32,000 nucleotides of DNA from the NCBI GenBank assembly GCA_963718585.1, contig OY970357.1, positions 510,001 through 542,000 of the forward strand, read 5' to 3'. Below, one piece after another: positions 3,361 to 32,000 of the stretch. Numbering within the stretch: the stretch's first letter is position 1; each line of letters opens with the position of its first letter. The stretch is from Candidatus Saccharimonadota bacterium. Its GTDB lineage: Bacteria; Patescibacteriota; Patescibacteriia; 2-12-FULL-60-25. The notes under the pieces were generated by a model. It ran no database searches and had not been told where the DNA came from. It saw only the letters and a list, made by a program, of their open reading frames with translations. Both the position numbers and the translations under genes were made by a program.

Positions 3361-4069
3361 ACTGGAGATCCTTCAGCAGATTCAAATGGTCGAGGAGGAT
3401 CGAAACGGAGGTCTTGCAGGCTTCAAGCGGATCCAGGGTGCCATCGGTCTCGATGGTGAGGATCAACTTGTCGTAGTCGGTCTTTTCTCCAAGACGCGTT
3501 TCTTCGACCTTATACGAGACGTTGATGACCGGGTTATACAACGCATCGATCGCGATGGTCCCGAGATCAAGTTTTTCCTTGATCCGCTCCTCGGTCGTGC
3601 GATACCCGCGGCCCTGTGCCACCGTGATCTCGAGCTCAAACGTTGCGCTCTTGTCGGTCAGATTGGCGATAAGGAGGTCCGGATTCATGACCTCGACATC
3701 CGCGTTCTTCGAGAAGGCTGCGGCCGTCACGACCGTCTCCCCCTTTGCGGACAACGTCAGTTTCACCGGTTCTTCAGAAAAGCACTTCAACCGAAGGTTC
3801 TTGAGATTCAAAATGATCTCCAAAACGTCTTCTTTGACGTTCGGCAATGTAGAAAACTCATGATCCGCGCCCTTGATCTTGACCGCTGTCACGGCCGCGC
3901 CAGGCAAAGACGACAAAAGCACGCGACGCAACGCATTACCCAGGGTCGTGCCATACCCTTGGGCGCAGGGCTCGACCGTAAGGATGCCCTCGTTCGGGCG
4001 CTCACCCGCCGCGAAGCGGATCTTAGTGGGGAGAAGAAGTGACTCCATAAAATTGGGGAGAATGAACAA
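3350..4069 (-). CDS. rpoA: DNA-directed RNA polymerase alpha subunit, N-terminal (assembly) domain only
   Basis: EPCAQGYGTTLGNALRRVLLSSLPGAAVTAVKIKGADHEFSTLPNVKEDVLEIILNLK is canonical alpha-NTD. The protein ends at 239 aa and overlaps the rplQ start by 11 nt, leaving no room for a C-terminal domain. Confidence 0.92.
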   Translation of the reverse strand: MFILPNFMESLLLPTKIRFAAGERPNEGILTVEPCAQGYGTTLGNALRRVLLSSLPGAAVTAVKIKGADHEFSTLPNVKEDVLEIILNLKNLRLKCFSEEPVKLTLSAKGETVVTAAAFSKNADVEVMNPDLLIANLTDKSATFELEITVAQGRGYRTTEERIKEKLDLGTIAIDALYNPVINVSYKVEETRLGEKTDYDKLILTIETDGTLDPLEACKTSVSILLDHLNLLKDLQYET

Positions 4070-4075
4070 GTCGCG

Positions 4076-4687
4076 TTAGCGCGAATAAAATTCGACGATG
4101 CGCTGGGGCTCGAAGATCTGCTTCAGATCATCACCTTCCGGTTCATTCACGATCTTGGCGCTCAATCCCTTGAGATCGACCGTGATCCATGACGGCGGTT
4201 CAGAGGCTGCCGGCGCTTCCGCGAATAACTTCCAATTCTTCTTTTCCCGCTTGCTCGGACGGATCGTGATCGTTTCCCCGGGACGAACCTGGTAGGACGC
4301 GATGTCCACCTTCTTCCCGTTGACGTCGATATGACCATGCGAGACGAGCTGACGTGCGGCTGCACGCGTCTTGGCGAATCCGGCACGGAACACCGCGTTG
4401 TCGAGCCGAAGCTCGAGCAACTGCACAAGTCGCGCCGCCGTGTTTCCCCGCGTCTTCACCGCTTTCTTGAAATAGTTGCTGAACTGCTTCTCCATGACGC
4501 CATACACAAGCTTCGCACGCTGCTTCTCACGAAGCTGCTTGCCGTAGTCAGTCTGCCGGTTGCGGCTCGTCGGCCCATGGACGCCCGGGCCATACGGACG
4601 CTTCGCCAAAATGCGCGCGATCTTCTCGCGGCCATCGAGGTTGACGCCTTCGCGGCGCGCCCGTTTTGCGGTGATACGGAGTTTCAT
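4076..4687 (-). CDS. rpsD: 30S ribosomal protein S4
   Basis: YGKQLREKQRAKLVYGVMEKQF...LELRLDNAVFRAGFAKTRAAARQLVSHGHIDVNGKKVDIASYQVRPGE (S4 domain). Confidence 0.95.
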   Translation of the reverse strand: MKLRITAKRARREGVNLDGREKIARILAKRPYGPGVHGPTSRNRQTDYGKQLREKQRAKLVYGVMEKQFSNYFKKAVKTRGNTAARLVQLLELRLDNAVFRAGFAKTRAAARQLVSHGHIDVNGKKVDIASYQVRPGETITIRPSKREKKNWKLFAEAPAASEPPSWITVDLKGLSAKIVNEPEGDDLKQIFEPQRIVEFYSR

Positions 4688-11964: not shown

Positions 11965-12855
11965 TCATTGGGATTCCCACTTATACGATGCCCAGGCCCA
12001 ATTGGCAAGGCTTTTGGCCGTATCGAAAGAAGATTGATAGCCCGGAGAGCCCAGAACGACGACCAATAACGGTGGTTTATCCGGGTCATTCGACATGGTC
12101 CGCATCTTCACCACGAGGTTATATCGGGATTCATAGAGAAAACCCGTCTTTCCCCCCAGAACATACATATCCGGATCACGCGTCAGGAGACGGTCCGTAT
12201 TCGTCAGCGTATGATGAAGGGTCGGCCCGTATGCCGTAAACGAATATTTCATCGTGGTCGCCGCGGAATGGATCAACCATGTATTGAACGCAACGCTTGC
12301 GAGTTTGGAGATATCCGTGGCTGTGATCGTGTTCGCCGGATCCATGCCGCTTGGTTCGACGTAATGAGAATTCGTCATCCCGAGCGCTTTCGCTTTTGCG
12401 TTCATGGCCGCGACGAATTGTGTCTGTGTGAGTCCGGTGGAGCGCGACAGCGCCATCGCCGCATTGTTCGCGCTCGCGACCAACGCCGAATACAGCAATT
12501 GCTTCACGGTCGCGGACGAACCCGTCCACACTATCAATCGCGCCCCGCCGACCTCATCACTCTTCACGAACGACATCCGTTTAGACCAATTCGGTCCACG
12601 TTCCACCGTCACAAGCGCGGTCATGAGCTTTGTCAGACTGGCACCCGACCATTTGCGGTCGGGGAGATACTGATACAATCGCTTCCCCGTCCCGGCATCG
12701 ATGATCAACGCGGATGCATATTGATCCGCTGACCGCGGATACAGGATCGAATTGGGTTTCACGACCGGAGTGCGGACAGACGCAAAGACCGGCGTGATGG
12801 ACCCCGCAAAAATAAGGGAACTCACGCTAAACAAAGCGAAAAAACGACGGATCAT
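11965..12855 (-). CDS. serine-type D-Ala-D-Ala carboxypeptidase (peptidase S11, PBP5-like)
   Basis: N-terminal signal/anchor, then SxxK (SLTK), SxN (SAN) and KTG (GGKTGF) motifs in the correct order. Confidence 0.85.
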   Translation of the reverse strand: MIRRFFALFSVSSLIFAGSITPVFASVRTPVVKPNSILYPRSADQYASALIIDAGTGKRLYQYLPDRKWSGASLTKLMTALVTVERGPNWSKRMSFVKSDEVGGARLIVWTGSSATVKQLLYSALVASANNAAMALSRSTGLTQTQFVAAMNAKAKALGMTNSHYVEPSGMDPANTITATDISKLASVAFNTWLIHSAATTMKYSFTAYGPTLHHTLTNTDRLLTRDPDMYVLGGKTGFLYESRYNLVVKMRTMSNDPDKPPLLVVVLGSPGYQSSFDTAKSLANWAWASYKWESQ

Positions 12856-27856: not shown

Positions 27857-29265
27857 AGGATCTTTCGGATCGCGTCATCGATGTCTCCGGCGCCCATGAC
27901 GATCAGCACATCGCCGGCATGTGCGATCTCAAATGATCGTTTGACGGCCGCATCCGGATCAGACGCATATTCGACATCCCGCACGACCCCCCTATCCGCA
28001 TCATGCCGTTGGACCGCGTCTACCAGATCTTTTGACGAGATACCCGCATCTTCATCCGCATCACGTCCGGCGACGTCATAGATCTCGCAGAGAATGAGCG
28101 CATCAGCTGCATCGAAGCTGGGGACGAAATCCAAGAACAGATGTTTCGTCCGATTATGATGATGCGGCTGAAAACATAACACGATCCGCGCCTCAGGATG
28201 GATCTCATGCGCCGCAGAGAGGGTCGCGGCAACGGCCGTGGGATGGTGCCCATAATCGCTGATGATCCGCACGCCACCCTTCTCGCCAAGTGACTCGAAA
28301 CGCCGCCAGATCCCGTGAAAATCCGCCAGTGCGCGTGCGATCGTCGGATATGGCGCGCCAAGCTCCAATGCCATGAGCGCCGCCCCCGCCGCATTCATCG
28401 CATTGAACGTCCCGGGGACACCCAGCGCAAAACGATAGGTCGTCCCCTGCCGTTCAAGTTCCACATGCGTCGTTCCGTCCACGCGCGATGGCGTGACATG
28501 CCAGTCATCCGTGTCAGTTCCATTGAATCGGATCACACGCAATTTCAACGTCTCCAATGCCATGCGTTCCTGTTCGAGCAATCTCGCGACGTTCGGATCG
28601 CCGATGTTCGCGATGAGGACCCCCCCGAAACGGACCTTCCCGATCAATTCGCGAAATGCGTGGACCATGTCCTCCAACGATGGAAAGATATCCGTGTGGT
28701 CCCACTCGAGGTTCGTCAACAGCAATCCATACGGATCAAGGTCCAAAAAGTGTTTCGCATACTCATCCCCTTCGACGACAAAGAACTCGGAGGACCCAAT
28801 ACGGAGATTCCCATCCGGAAAAGACGGGACCTTGCTCCCGACCACGACCGTCGGATCCAGATCCGCCTGTTCGAGCGCAAGACCAAGCATCGCCGTGGTC
28901 GTGCTCTTCCCGTGCGTCCCAGCGACCACGATCATCTTCTTCGTCTTGAACCATTCTCCGAGGAACTGGAAATTCGTCAGCTCCGGAATGCTGCGACGCC
29001 GCGCTTCTTCACGTTCCGGATTATTCTCCGGCGCCGCGGACGTGTAGACGACAAGGTCTGCATCCGCAGGGACGTTCTTCACAGACTGTCCGATCATGAT
29101 CTTTGCTCCCTTTGACGCCAATGCCCGCGTCTGTTCATTTTCCACGGCGTCGGATCCGGATACGCGGACGCCGGAAGCGAGCAACAGCTTCCCCACCGCG
29201 GACATATTGATCCCGCCGGCGCCGACCAGATGGACGGCCTGTACGTCATGAACGTTCATGGCCAT
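27853..29265 (-). CDS. murC: UDP-N-acetylmuramate--L-alanine ligase MurC
   Basis: [29 protein letters not shown] (P-loop), EGDEY, Mur ligase C-terminal domain. 4-nt overlap with murB. Confidence 0.93.
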
Positions 29266-29311
29266 AGCCTACGGGAAGCGCCGGCTGACCGCAACGGAGT
29301 TTTCGACGTGG

Positions 29312-29340
29312 TTGCATCGGCCATCCTGCACGGATACCAT
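29312..29340 (+). promoter_or_regulatory. glyA promoter, leaderless geometry
   Basis: TTGCAT (29312-29317), a 17-nt spacer, then TACCAT (29335-29340), with 6 nt to ATG 29347. The predicted transcription start therefore falls on the A of the start codon. Confidence 0.5.
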
Positions 29341-29346
29341 CGGCGC

Positions 29347-30631
29347 ATGTCCTACCTCTCCGCCACCGACCCTGAGATCGCCGGCCTGATCGATGAAGAG
29401 ATCGACCGACAGCGCAACGACCTTGAGCTCATCGCGAGCGAGAATTATGTCAGCGAAGCCGTCCTCGAAGCCCTCGGGACCCCGCTGACGAACAAGTACG
29501 CAGAAGGATATCCGGGCAAACGGTACTACGGAGGGAACCAGGTCATCGATAAGATCGAATCCCTTGCGATCGACCGCGCGAACGCGGCTATTCTCCGCTG
29601 AACATGCGAATGTTCAGCCGCACGCGGGGGCGCAGGCGAATTTCGCGGTCTATCTTGCCCTTGCCAAACCTGGCGATACGATCCTCGCGATGGACCTCAA
29701 TGCCGGCGGACATCTGACACATGGATCTCCCGTGAACTTCAGCGGGAAATGGTTCGACATCGTCCCCTACGGTGTCCGGGAAGACGATGAGCGCGTGGAT
29801 ATGGATCAGGTCCGCGCGTTGGCGCGTGAAAAGAAACCCCGCGTGATCCTCGCGGGATTCAGCGCCTATCCGCGTACCCTTGATTTTGCGGCCTTCGCCG
29901 AGATCGCACACGAGGTCGGTGCGTATCTGTTCGTGGATATGGCGCACATCGCCGGATTGGTCGCCGCGGGACTCTCCCCTTCTCCGATCCCGCACGCGGA
30001 CGTGGTCTCGACGACCACACACAAGACCCTTCGCGGACCGCGCGGCGCCATCATCCTGTCGAAGACCGCGGACCGTCTCGATCCCGAAGGAAAAAAGACG
30101 CTCGCACAGAAGATCGACTCTGCGGTCTTTCCGGGTGCGCAGGGCGGACCCTTGGAACACTGCATCGCCGCCAAAGCCGTCGCATTCGAAGAAGCACTGC
30201 GCCCCTCATTCAAAACGTATCAACAGAACGTACTGTCGAATTGCCAAGCGCTTGCCGCAACGTTATTGGAGGAAGGTGCACGCCTTGTTTCCGGCGGATC
30301 GGATAATCACTTGCTTCTCGTCGACGTGACACCATGGGGCATCGGCGGGAAAGATGCCGAACGGACACTTGAAGAGGTCGGCGTCAGCGTGAACAAGAAC
30401 ATGATCCCGTTCGATAGACGGAAACCCATGGATCCATCCGGCATCCGTGTCGGGACGGCAGCGATCACGACACGCGGCTTCGACGATCGATCGACGCGCG
30501 AGGTCGGCCATCTGATCGCTCATGTCCTCAGATCCCCGACGGACGAGGTCAAGACCAAGACGGCGGCACGGATCCGGGAGATCGCGAACGCGCACTCCAT
30601 CTACCCAGGTCTCGCCAAATTGAGCGGATGA
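29347..30631 (+). pseudogene. glyA: serine hydroxymethyltransferase GlyA, interrupted by a 1-nt frameshift
   Basis: The frame from ATG 29347 gives [63 protein letters not shown]...AIDRAN and then hits a stop at 29599-29601. The +1 frame continues [19 protein letters not shown]...HKTLRGPRG... to 30631. Deleting C29583 restores [16 protein letters not shown]. Confidence 0.88.
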
Positions 30632-30633
30632 AA

Positions 30634-30656
30634 AAAGAGCGCCTCGGGCGCTCTTT
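30634..30656. terminator. bidirectional hairpin terminator after glyA
   Basis: AAAGAGCGCC (30634-30643) pairs perfectly with GGCGCTCTTT (30647-30656) around a 3-nt loop. The U-run is much better on the minus strand (stem then TTTTTTCA) than on the plus strand. Confidence 0.65.
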
Positions 30657-30985
30657 AGAAGATAGAAGATTTGAGACACAGGGACCGGCCCGCGGAGGTG
30701 ATCGCGGGATTTTTCACGGATGAGGGCGTCCGCGCCGGAGGTGAGGTCCGCCACACCTTCAGGACGCGCAGCACGCTGCATCGTCCTGCCCAGGCCTCTT
30801 CGGCACCAAACGTCTCGCGTGGGGGGTGATACGCGAGGCTGACGGCACCACGGACCTTTCGGTCTGACACGTTCCCTTACTGACGGGAATAAAGCTGGGG
30901 GAGGGCTCTCCTTCCCATCAACGCGGAAAACCGCACGGAAGCAGCGGCCGTGTCGGACCGAACATAAGTCTGTGAGGTACGAGGA
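30657..30985 (-). ncRNA. candidate ~0.3 kb structured small RNA with three anti-Shine-Dalgarno-like C-rich motifs (unclassified)
   Basis: Bounded by a promoter-like element (30988-31017) and the 30634-30656 terminator, whose U-run is on the minus strand. Hairpins lie at 30689-30708, 30761-30787, 30812-30839, 30853-30866 (GAAA loop on minus), 30872-30889 and 30935-30953. No credible ORF. Confidence 0.35.
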
Positions 30986-30987
30986 AA

Positions 30988-31017
30988 ACGATACGTCGAA
31001 CAAAGCCCGCTTGTCAA
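30988..31017 (-). promoter_or_regulatory. sigma70-like promoter for the downstream ncRNA candidate
   Basis: Minus strand reads TTGACA (31017-31012), an 18-nt spacer, then TATCGT (30993-30988), immediately downstream of a terminator. Confidence 0.4.
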
Positions 31018-31020
31018 GAT

Positions 31021-31050
31021 ATTAAAGAAAGGGACGGCAGAGCCGTCCCT
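31021..31050 (-). terminator. intrinsic terminator ending the large structured RNA candidate
   Basis: Minus strand reads AGGGACGGC-TCT-GCCGTCCCT (9 perfect bp, plus coordinates 31030-31050) followed by TTCTTTAAT. There is no U-run in the plus orientation. Confidence 0.6.
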
Positions 31051-31900
31051 TGAGAGGTGGGCAGCGGAGCCGCCCGAGAAAAAGATCGGTTCGGGGAGGA
31101 AGGACCGGGTATGCGCAGAGACCGCGCTTGTTTAAGGCACAGTTTCCTGCACCCCCGGTGGCGAGGCCTGCCTCGCGCCTATGTGGTACCCATGCCTGGG
31201 TTCCACATCCTTCCATCCTCGTGATGTCAACGGTGCGAGATGCACTTCGCGATTCCGCCCGAAAGCGTTCACGCTACTTTTCACACCCGTTTTTCACAGT
31301 GCCAGCAGATGATCCCGAGACCCGGGGTCGACATGCGCCCGCTAAAGCGCCCGTGCAGGACTTCGGTGTTCCTGCAACATCTCTGTCGATGGGTCGGCGC
31401 GTTTCCGCACCTTTCTGCCGATCGGCGGACCTGTGACCGAGGTCCGTCGGATGAGCTGTCCTTTGGACGAGCGCGTACATAGCGCACATCCGTTCGGATC
31501 ACCCCACTGTTCAGACTTCACACAGGCCTGCAAAGGGACACCCCATACGGGATGCATTGACGACGATCCGGATCCTTCGATCCGTCAGACAGTCCATGAC
31601 GCATTCGATCACTTGCGCGACCGTCTGCGAACAGGAAGTGTCCGACCGTACGAGAACCCGTTCATCATCCTTACCCTCTACCGATCGCTCAACCGTTTTG
31701 CATCCATCCGTTACGACGAATGCTTTTTCCCTGACTCGGTTCCTCCTTCGTTGTCCTTGCGGCAACGCTCCGGTCTTCCGTCGCACCTTGCGATGCGGGG
31801 CTGGCCGGATCATCCGAAGACGGTCCGTGGTCGGTCGCAGTTTCCCTTGCGGGTCTCCTGCAACGATCGAGTGACGATGTTCAGCTGTAACGTGCTGGTC
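31051..31900 (-). ncRNA. candidate large (~0.85 kb) highly structured non-coding RNA, unclassified
   Basis: No protein-like ORF in any frame. Dense local helices include four minus-strand hairpins capped by GCAA (GNRA) tetraloops at 31607-31622, 31750-31766, 31782-31797 and 31837-31861. There is a c(UUCG)g-capped hairpin at 31806-31825 and further hairpins at 31181-31208, 31310-31328 and 31354-31376. An AT-rich island lies upstream (31901-31934) and a terminator lies at 31021-31050. Confidence 0.45.
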
Positions 31901-31934
31901 ACTCTATATTTTCAATTTTTTTGAGAAACGTCAA
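31901..31934. promoter_or_regulatory. AT-rich promoter-like island
   Basis: ACTCTATATTTTCAATTTTTTTGAGAAACGTCAA stands out in GC-rich DNA. The minus strand shows TTGACG (31934-31929) and downstream TATAGA/AAATAT candidates, but the spacing is non-ideal (17-20 nt). Direction is not certain. Confidence 0.3.
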
Positions 31935-32000
31935 GGGTGAGAGGTGGATAACCCGACACAGATAAAATGCGGCTGAACGATCTGAAAAAAACAACTTCTA

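Follow-up and report, generated by a model that had tools for sequence, protein, structure and literature searches.

What occupies the non-coding block downstream of glyA in an otherwise densely coded stretch of a Candidatus Saccharimonadota genome (contig OY970357.1, positions 510,001 to 542,000; 32,000 nt, hereafter the window)? The original prediction, made by reading this DNA, had proposed that the larger part of the block encodes a large structured non-coding RNA (ncRNA) on the minus strand, and that reading gained support from compensatory base changes found in relatives. We call the element RNA1 (~31021–31899, minus strand) and, with a probability of roughly 0.6, take it to be a stand-alone gene for a structured ncRNA of ~880 nt, from an undescribed family, that acts in trans as a folded RNA or ribonucleoprotein (RNP). 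Across relatives the structure of RNA1 is conserved although its sequence is not, and RNA1 is best filed as a new family among the large structured bacterial ncRNAs of unknown function.

The minus strand of the RNA1 block has a minimum free energy (MFE) of -395 kcal/mol. Compared with shuffled sequences, its fold gave z = -6.4 (20 shuffles) and -5.5 (30 shuffles), the plus strand of the block gave -3.2 and -2.4, and eight coding controls ranged from +0.4 to -2.2. After correction for GC content, the block was the top stability outlier among all 880-nt segments of the 32 kb on both strands; the G+C content of the RNA1 body is 59%. Counting contiguous stems of at least 4 bp, the minus strand has seven hairpins with GNRA loops and two with UUCG loops and the plus strand has neither kind, while dinucleotide shuffles of the block held a mean of 0.84 GNRA hairpins and a maximum of 4. 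The minus-strand bin at 31–32 kb holds nine GNRA/UUCG hairpins, and every other 1-kb bin, on either strand, holds five or fewer.

Folds and a hairpin scan together place a cluster of three GCAA hairpins and one UUCG hairpin towards the 5' end of the RNA (31750–31861, minus). Its members are GUUGCC-GCAA-GGaCAAC (31750–31766), which is bulged, CGCAUC-GCAA-GGUGCG (31782–31797), CGUC-UUCG-GAUG (31811–31822) and GCAG..CCC-GCAA-GGG..CUGC (31837–31861), with CGGUCGC-GCAA-GUGAUCG lying further along the minus strand (31606–31623). The GCAA and UUCG hairpins that had been picked out by eye are therefore present, either as contiguous stems (31606–31623, 31782–31797 and 31811–31822) or in both MFE and centroid folds (31750–31766 and 31837–31861). 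The region had also been described as having no protein-like open reading frame (ORF). ORFs of 163, 128 and 105 amino acids do exist between 31021 and 31934 on the plus strand, as do ORFs of 100 amino acids and below on the minus strand, but they are short or odd in composition; none of nine ORFs from the window reached the Pfam cut-off, and nor did a 215-amino-acid ORF from one of the homologous loci.

The block lies downstream of glyA (29230–30631, plus strand), whose best GTDB loci were Patescibacteria metagenome-assembled genomes at 72–74% GlyA identity; those GlyA relatives in the database that bear a name are Patescibacteria or ‘Candidatus Uhrbacteria’. In relatives, the gene after glyA is folD. 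The original prediction had pointed past the window edge for the neighbouring gene, and as the window ends at 32000 we take from relatives that folD probably adjoins the block here too. Four related Patescibacteria contigs (L081, L084, L086 and L088) have an equivalent unit of 800–930 nt in the same place and antisense, and some close relatives are without the block. The distance between glyA and folD is 31 nt in L089–L091, 407 nt in L093, 448 nt in L083, 479 nt in L092, 846 nt in L088, 945 nt in L086/L087, 950 nt in L081/L082 and 1534 nt in L084; in the window, at least 1370 nt separate glyA from the edge. This wide variation indicates that the non-coding block is an insertion into a glyA–folD pair. 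The RNA1 family is so far found in five Patescibacteria lineages of one clade, always antisense between glyA and folD. Searches of the block with blastn and nhmmer against 80 glyA loci from GTDB genomes gave no match, the nearest GTDB genomes (L001 and L002) are without the element, and exact-pattern scans of JGI metagenomes with a 48-mer from the window and with a promoter/5'-end motif (kept in L081, L084 and L086) also gave no match.

RNA1 carries its own predicted signals: a sigma-70-type promoter, a DnaA-type box 8 nt upstream of the -35 element and an intrinsic terminator. In the window, on the minus strand, the DnaA-box-like site TTATCCACC (31943–31951) matches TTATCCACA at 8/9 positions and precedes the -35 hexamer TTGACG (31929–31934) by exactly 8 nt; this hexamer is TTGACG or TTGACC at the same position in homologs; the -10 region AAATAT (31906–31911) follows 17 nt past the -35, and homologs have TAATCT at equal spacing. 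Given as box, spacer, -35 and -10, the putative promoters read TTATCCACC, tctcaccc, TTGACG and AAATAT in the window; TTATCCACA, gtttggac, TTGACG and TAATCT in L088; TTGTCCACA, caaaaccc, TTGACG and TAATCT in L084; ATATCCACA, ccaaatcc, TTGACC and TAATCT in L081; and ATATCCACA, tcaactcc, TTGACG and TAATCT in L086. The layout of DnaA-type box, 8 nt, TTGAC(G/C), 17 nt and (T/A)AAT(C/A)T is thus kept in all five RNA1 loci, with 0–1 mismatch in the box at the same 8-nt distance in L081, L084, L086 and L088. As a simple scan did not report AAATAT, the -10 assignment rests on alignment with the four homologous promoters, and this alignment in turn puts the start near 31899 and the length of RNA1 at ~880 nt, with its end placed at the U-tract of the terminator. 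The AT-rich island proposed as the upstream boundary of the RNA therefore turns out to be its promoter region as well, with the RNA itself starting near 31899.

Boxes of this type were located at 12235 and 12290 in L081, at 5455 and 5533 in L084, at 11744 and 11799 in L086 and at 2199 in L088. The second box in L081, L084 and L086 is perfect and inverted, lies 55–78 bp further on and adjoins the start of folD, so that two boxes flank an AT-rich divergent promoter region of ~90 bp between the RNA1 promoter and the folD start. A box scan of the glyA–folD gap in loci without RNA1 (L083, L092 and L089) found none. At the other end, the clean minus-strand terminator that had been read by eye was recovered by a terminator scan as a hairpin at 31051–31029 with 10 pairs, a 3-nt loop and the tail TCTTTAATAT; as a feature, this predicted RNA1 terminator (10-bp stem, 3-nt loop, tail UCUUUAAUAU) spans 31019–31051 on the minus strand. 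Minus-strand terminators were found in all five RNA1 loci, each homolog having its own at the same place, so a promoter and an intrinsic terminator, both as predicted signals, are kept in homologs.

The strand preference is likewise kept. The minus-strand z values of the five RNA1s were -5.5 (window), -10.3, -5.3, -6.3 and -6.7, against -1.4 to -4.5 for the plus strands. In the window, nine hairpins capped by GNRA or UNCG loops on the minus strand compare with zero on the plus strand, and the corresponding counts are 7 versus 2, 5 versus 1 and 5 versus 1 in three homologs, giving a minus-strand excess of such caps in four of the five RNA1s. The minus-strand polarity first proposed from the loop sequences is accordingly borne out by homologous loci with the same minus-strand promoter, terminator and asymmetry of fold stability.

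How fast does the sequence itself change? Third codon positions of glyA are 0.71 identical between L081 and L086, 0.73–0.74 between L084 and either of these, and ~0.45 between the window and all relatives. The L081 and L086 RNA1s are 73% identical over 815 columns, close to the synonymous rate, and much of RNA1 is therefore unconstrained in sequence. By region, the 5' end and central core are 82–90% identical in this pair (against 71% at glyA third positions) and the 3' third 40–65%. Mismatches between the two RNA1s fall at 0.31/0.23/0.28 by codon phase, with no periodicity, compared with 0.07/0.03/0.29 in glyA, and the lengths of 16 of 19 indels would break a reading frame; together with the Pfam results, this leaves no protein-coding signal. 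Six-frame translations had no match among 5.8 billion proteins, in a search that is insensitive and carries little weight, as the called ORF of L081 was also not recovered. The RNA1s of L084, L088 and the window could be aligned to other RNA1s by blastn only at their ends and in short islands, and MAFFT alone could not align the five sequences. Comparing L081 (11270–12218) with L086 (10867–11810), we also observed that a 94-nt insertion in L081 consists of complete extra hairpins; peripheral domains of large RNAs are known to gain and lose modules in this way.

Base pairing has outlasted this drift. When the MFE structure of L081 alone was applied to L086, 16 pairs that had changed on both sides were still paired, compared with 0–3 in slid controls and 8.5 ± 2.1 in shuffles, none of 500 of which reached 16. 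Single-sided changes often break predicted pairs (44 broken versus 23 kept); many broken pairs are expected because the 900-nt MFE model is unrefined. Pairs are kept through compensatory substitutions both here and in a second alignment, of the 3' domain, although the sample is small and the second alignment was fitted to its model.

The conserved elements of RNA1 are a central island and a four-helix junction near the 3' end, the longest hairpin of which ends in an A-rich loop. Between these elements, many hairpins, often with GNRA or UUCG caps, vary fast in sequence, length and number yet stay hairpins. The junction domain (31089–31227, minus), delimited by a covariance model, nhmmer and folds, is closed by helix Px, in which GGAAGGA (31208–31214) pairs with UCCUUCC (31098–31104), enclosing hairpins H0 (31182–31207), Ha (GCGAGG-CAGG-CCUCGC, 31161–31176, with GCGAG...CUCGC as its pattern) and the long Hb (31104–31159). 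When the final ~160 nt of the five RNA1s were folded independently, the same order of elements emerged in each. Px pairings read from the sequences are GGAAGGA/UCCUUCC in the window, GGAGAAGA/UCUUCUCC in L084, GAGGAGA/UCUCCUC in L086, GGAGA/UCUCC in L081 and AGAGAG/UUCUCU in L088. The outer stem of Hb covaries, being ACCGGG/CCCGGU in the window, GCCGGA/UCCGGU in L081, AUGGAU/AUCCAU in L084, GCCGAUGA/UCAUCGGU in L086 and GCCAAUGA/UCAUUGGU in L088. Its A-rich apical loop, CUUAAACAA (31128–31136, minus), is identical in L088 and reads CGUAAAAAA in L081, CUCUAACAAGA in L084 and CGUCACAC in L086; no intramolecular partner for this loop was consistent across homologs. Between the junction and the terminator lies Hc (GGGCGGC-UCC-GCUGCCC, 31059–31075, minus), with a 7-bp stem and a triloop. 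Its equivalents are GUCGAGC-NUC-GCUCGAC in L084 and L081, GAUCCGC-ACA-GCGGAUC in L088 and GCGGC-UCAUUU-GCCGC in L086, so that the stem has 5–7 bp, with a triloop in four of the five RNA1s and a 6-nt loop in L086.

The 3' domain can be detected from its relatives. A leave-one-out nhmmer profile built from the four RNA1s other than that of the window found 31075–31183 on the minus strand of the window at E = 0.01, the best non-training match in ~1.5 Mb. A covariance model (R1) trained on L081 and L086 only, with 145 positions and 23 pairs, matched the window at 31089–31227 (minus) from end to end, with 35.2 bits and E = 4.8e-7, and matched L088 at E = 0.003; all else had E > 0.1. In an alignment of the 3' domain of four sequences, 93% of cells were paired and 13 of the 23 pairs had compensatory changes, compared with 0–4 in slid controls and 5.2 ± 1.6 in shuffles. 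The central island, GCCUGUGUGAAGUCUGAACAGUGGGGUGA (31499–31527, minus), was found through short collinear matches only, in the pattern GCCUGUGUGAAG...ACAG...GGGUGA; it is common to L084 and L088 (GCCUGUGAGA...) and, loosely, to L081 and L086 (GAGAAGAUCACAGUCCGGGU).

RNA1 matched no described family. Across the whole window, Rfam 15 gave no match at the gathering score; within 30500–32000 the best E was at least 1.3, far below threshold, and L084, L088, L092 and L083 gave none at E <= 1. On L001, L002 and L006, Rfam found only a tRNA. Models for RNase P, transfer-messenger RNA (tmRNA), signal recognition particle (SRP) RNA and 6S RNA had no match to RNA1, and ARAGORN found no tRNA or tmRNA gene in the window. 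The failure of the original prediction to match RNase P, tmRNA, SRP, 6S, ribosomal RNA or introns by eye thus agrees with the Rfam scan that it had proposed, which returned no known family at E < 1 in the window or its relatives. Full-text literature searches found no account of a large ncRNA in Patescibacteria.

We hypothesize that RNA1, as an RNA or within a ribonucleoprotein, would fold compactly and act in trans, that the junction, the island and the A-rich loop may form its partner-binding working core, that the tetraloop hairpins would be interchangeable struts stabilizing the tertiary fold, and that DnaA occupancy may modulate RNA1 synthesis. Several points weigh against this interpretation. 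The scaffold-and-partner mechanism is something we only infer. The -10 of the window, AAATAT, is a weak match to consensus and was missed by the simple promoter scan, and the 5' end of RNA1 is likewise a position derived from predicted signals only. RNA1 is dispensable: L089–L091 have only a 31-nt gap, and L083, L092 and L093 only a short RNA. The sample comprises five RNA1 sequences in four well-separated lineages, and the overall identity of L081 and L086 (73%) is no higher than that of synonymous sites (71%). The alignment behind the covariation of the 3' domain (A7) comes from a small sample and, having been fitted to its model, is biased towards pairing; models of the 3' domain do not detect L084, and a central covariance model built on the L081/L086 core (R3) was not significant in the window, where its hit at 31536–31637 (minus) had E = 0.22, in collinear position. 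Finally, within L084 4490–5460, the RNA1 interior cannot be aligned with L081 or L086, matching over ~60 nt at each end only, while its glyA is as divergent from theirs as theirs are from each other. The RNA1 of L084 has therefore diverged beyond the glyA expectation, which suggests a cassette-like replacement of its interior or locally accelerated change.

A bolder version of the trans-acting RNA, which we hold as a tentative possibility, would make RNA1, perhaps with the smaller neighbouring unit RNA2 described below, a new Patescibacteria-specific class of tertiary-structured RNA, maybe catalytic or forming a higher-order RNA or RNP assembly like GOLLD, ROOL or OLE, and coupled to DnaA through the box.

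Could RNA1 instead be an accessory, selfish or conflict-related element, similar to GOLLD, ROOL or a defence RNA, whose turnover and patchiness stem from an arms race or horizontal replacement? Its patchiness among close relatives (gaps of 31, 407–479, 846–950 and 1534 nt), the apparently replaced interior of L084, the indels of whole hairpins, including the one of 94 nt, and the presence of two tandem units in the window and L084 would all suit such an element. It nevertheless keeps to a single chromosomal site among housekeeping genes, the gene tables show no integrase, reverse transcriptase, toxin or phage gene nearby, there are no flanking repeats, and blastn against phage and plasmid collections gave no match. 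We consider this explanation rather unlikely. Ten viral-contig matches to a G+C-rich 17-base pattern were dismissed as chance, lying inside coding sequence.

It is also unlikely, in our judgement, that the act of transcription matters and the RNA does not. On this account the insertion split an ancestral glyA–folD operon and brought in a divergent promoter region, flanked by DnaA boxes, that gave folD DnaA-dependent control of its own; the antisense unit insulates against glyA read-through or interferes with it, the long RNA being a by-product. The ancestral-looking state is indeed glyA–folD with a 31-nt gap, DnaA boxes are confined to RNA1 loci and flank the ~90 bp that separate the RNA1 promoter from the start of folD, and the interior of the RNA changes about as fast as synonymous sites. 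A by-product, however, would not hold z values between -5 and -10 on a single strand across five lineages that have diverged; the strand-specific GNRA/UUCG caps, the compensatory changes, the conserved islands inside the RNA and a junction domain that a model recovers at E = 4.8e-7 would all go unexplained; and a terminator would be enough for insulation, with no need for 0.9 kb in a genome that has next to no spacers.

Decay of the block, as a pseudogene or as neutral spacer with hairpins incidental to G+C-rich sequence, is very improbable. An overall substitution rate near the synonymous one, the 44 pairs broken against 23 kept under single-sided change and the loss of the element in some relatives are what decaying DNA would show, but there is no protein signal and no codon periodicity, fold stability is strand-specific and far beyond that of shuffles and coding controls, promoter spacing is conserved to the nucleotide, double changes keep pairing, and the genome is otherwise tightly packed.

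A replication origin or a DnaA-titrating region in place of an RNA gene is a reading that we regard as most improbable and, as oriC, reject on box count, composition and skew in relatives, with the window covering the locus up to 32000. The DnaA-like box at 31943–31951 and the perfect boxes in relatives would fit it, as would the switch in gene orientation at ~29.2 kb in the window, with GC skew negative to the left of the switch. Each locus has only one or two boxes, however, the 0.9-kb body is 59% G+C and has none, and the sign of the skew does not change at the locus in L083 or L002, which is why we do not take the locus for an origin; the promoter, the terminator and the strand-specific RNA features would also be left unexplained.

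A plus-strand cis-regulatory RNA, either a long glyA 3' untranslated region or, ahead of folD, a leader or a riboswitch that responds to one-carbon metabolites, is suggested by the position of the block between two genes of folate/one-carbon metabolism but is scarcely credible, as a bidirectional terminator directly follows glyA (30631–30657), folding on the plus strand is much weaker and the loops there read UUGC, Rfam gave no riboswitch at E < 1, ZTP and THF included, and glyA–folD persists in relatives without the block.

As a structured RNA acting in trans, RNA1 invites comparison with the large, ornate bacterial ncRNAs OLE (RF01071), GOLLD (RF01998), ROOL (RF03087) and raiA, which are in part covered by two published accounts (PMC12286853, PMC5737381). 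Like these, RNA1 appears to be a stand-alone gene of several hundred nucleotides with its own promoter and terminator, no protein and an unknown function, and it shares with them multi-helix junctions, many GNRA-capped hairpins and a patchy distribution. Unlike them, it has no sequence or structure match to any of the four at E < 1 and is hosted by Patescibacteria; it mostly drifts at about the synonymous rate, whereas they are conserved enough for alignment across phyla; and it is tied to the glyA–folD gap and a DnaA-box promoter, whereas their contexts are phage, tRNA or oap genes. The likeness to OLE, GOLLD, ROOL and HEARO-type RNAs drawn by the original prediction therefore holds for kind (large and ornate) and fails for family, since nothing in Rfam matched at E < 1. 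OLE is associated with the genes oapA, oapB and oapC in Bacillota; the neighbours of the RNA1 locus are glyA, folD, murC, murB and secA. GOLLD and ROOL are frequent in phage, prophage or tRNA-cluster contexts; around RNA1 there was no tRNA by ARAGORN and no similarity to phages or plasmids, and the neighbours are housekeeping genes.

Telomerase RNA and the RNase P and MRP RNAs are scaffold RNAs that evolve fast, each combining a small conserved core with helices that vary. RNA1 resembles them in having short islands and junctions between varying helices that are kept paired by compensatory change, and differs in that no homology was found. The protein-sponge small RNAs of the CsrB/RsmZ type are similar to RNA1 in their promoter and terminator, hairpin arrays and rapid sequence turnover between species, but RNA1 exceeds them two- to threefold in length, contains a conserved junction of several helices and lacks a reiterated loop motif. 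A sponge motif of the CsrB type was considered and rejected: the enrichment of GGA is slight (z = 1.9), and GNRA and UNCG loops occur side by side.

Bacterial ncRNAs of more than ~500 nt with complex conserved folds are very rare. To our knowledge, each such large RNA (RNase P, group I/II introns, OLE, GOLLD and ROOL) exposed new RNA biochemistry or architecture, and we know of none with a complex fold from the Candidate Phyla Radiation. Genomes of that radiation are ~1 Mb in size and have almost no spare DNA; that such tiny, spacer-poor genomes retain non-coding units of 0.9–1.3 kb argues for a real role. The RNA1 family offers an example of a large RNA with a small conserved core and helices that turn over near the neutral rate, and the conserved, predicted DnaA-box promoter is a concrete, testable regulatory link. 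If true, coupling to DnaA would connect the cell cycle of these ultra-small episymbionts with a large RNA.

The non-coding block of ~1.3 kb first described here does extend that far, with the ~350-nt neighbour of RNA1 forming a separate minus-strand unit that has a promoter and terminator of its own. This unit, RNA2 (30631–31017, minus), has a body of ~350 nt, a predicted promoter TTGACA-18-TATCGT (31017–30988) and the bidirectional terminator at 30631–30657, which it has in common with glyA. Its minus-strand fold has z = -4.8, and Rfam gave no match for it. RNA2 is not part of RNA1. The layout of L084 is the same: a first unit with promoter TTGACG-17-TAATCT, a body of ~930 nt and a terminator at 4522–4500 is directly followed by a second, in which the promoter TTGACG-17-TATAAA drives a ~420-nt body that ends in a terminator at 4057–4028, while L081, L086 and L088 have RNA1 only. 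Short RNAs occupy the same site in L083 and L093, and that of L092 has three collinear local matches to RNA2 of the window. By eye, elements resembling Ha and Hb can be seen in L093 and L092; as a four-sequence model of the RNA1 3' domain detected neither RNA2 nor the short RNAs of L092, L093 and L083, kinship between RNA1 and RNA2 is only a lead. Inside RNA2, the hairpin CCCGCG-AUCACCUC-CGCGGG (30689–30708, minus) displays AUCACCUC in its loop, which we take to match the anti-Shine–Dalgarno end of 16S rRNA; the loop could be a 16S mimic or a coincidence.

Elsewhere in the window, glyA is split into overlapping ORFs (29230–29601 and 29564–30631) by one extra base near GCGAACGCGGCTATTC. The glyA genes of L081, L084 and L083 read straight through this site, which is not a homopolymer, and the split could stem from misassembly, mark a pseudogene or represent a programmed shift. 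At ~29230–29265, a run of ~27 kb of nearly all minus-strand genes ends at murC, and plus-strand glyA starts overlapping murC. GC skew is negative throughout the left part of the window, which gives the region an origin-like look, yet there is no flip at the locus in L083 or L002. A second candidate non-coding region, at 1–1370, was rejected: it is a MurJ-like minus-strand ORF running off the edge. This MurJ/flippase-like gene (1–1333, minus), with the start MSYGRTVAKNAAWLIAA..., extends past the left edge of the window, which is why the segment looks ORF-poor in the ORF list.

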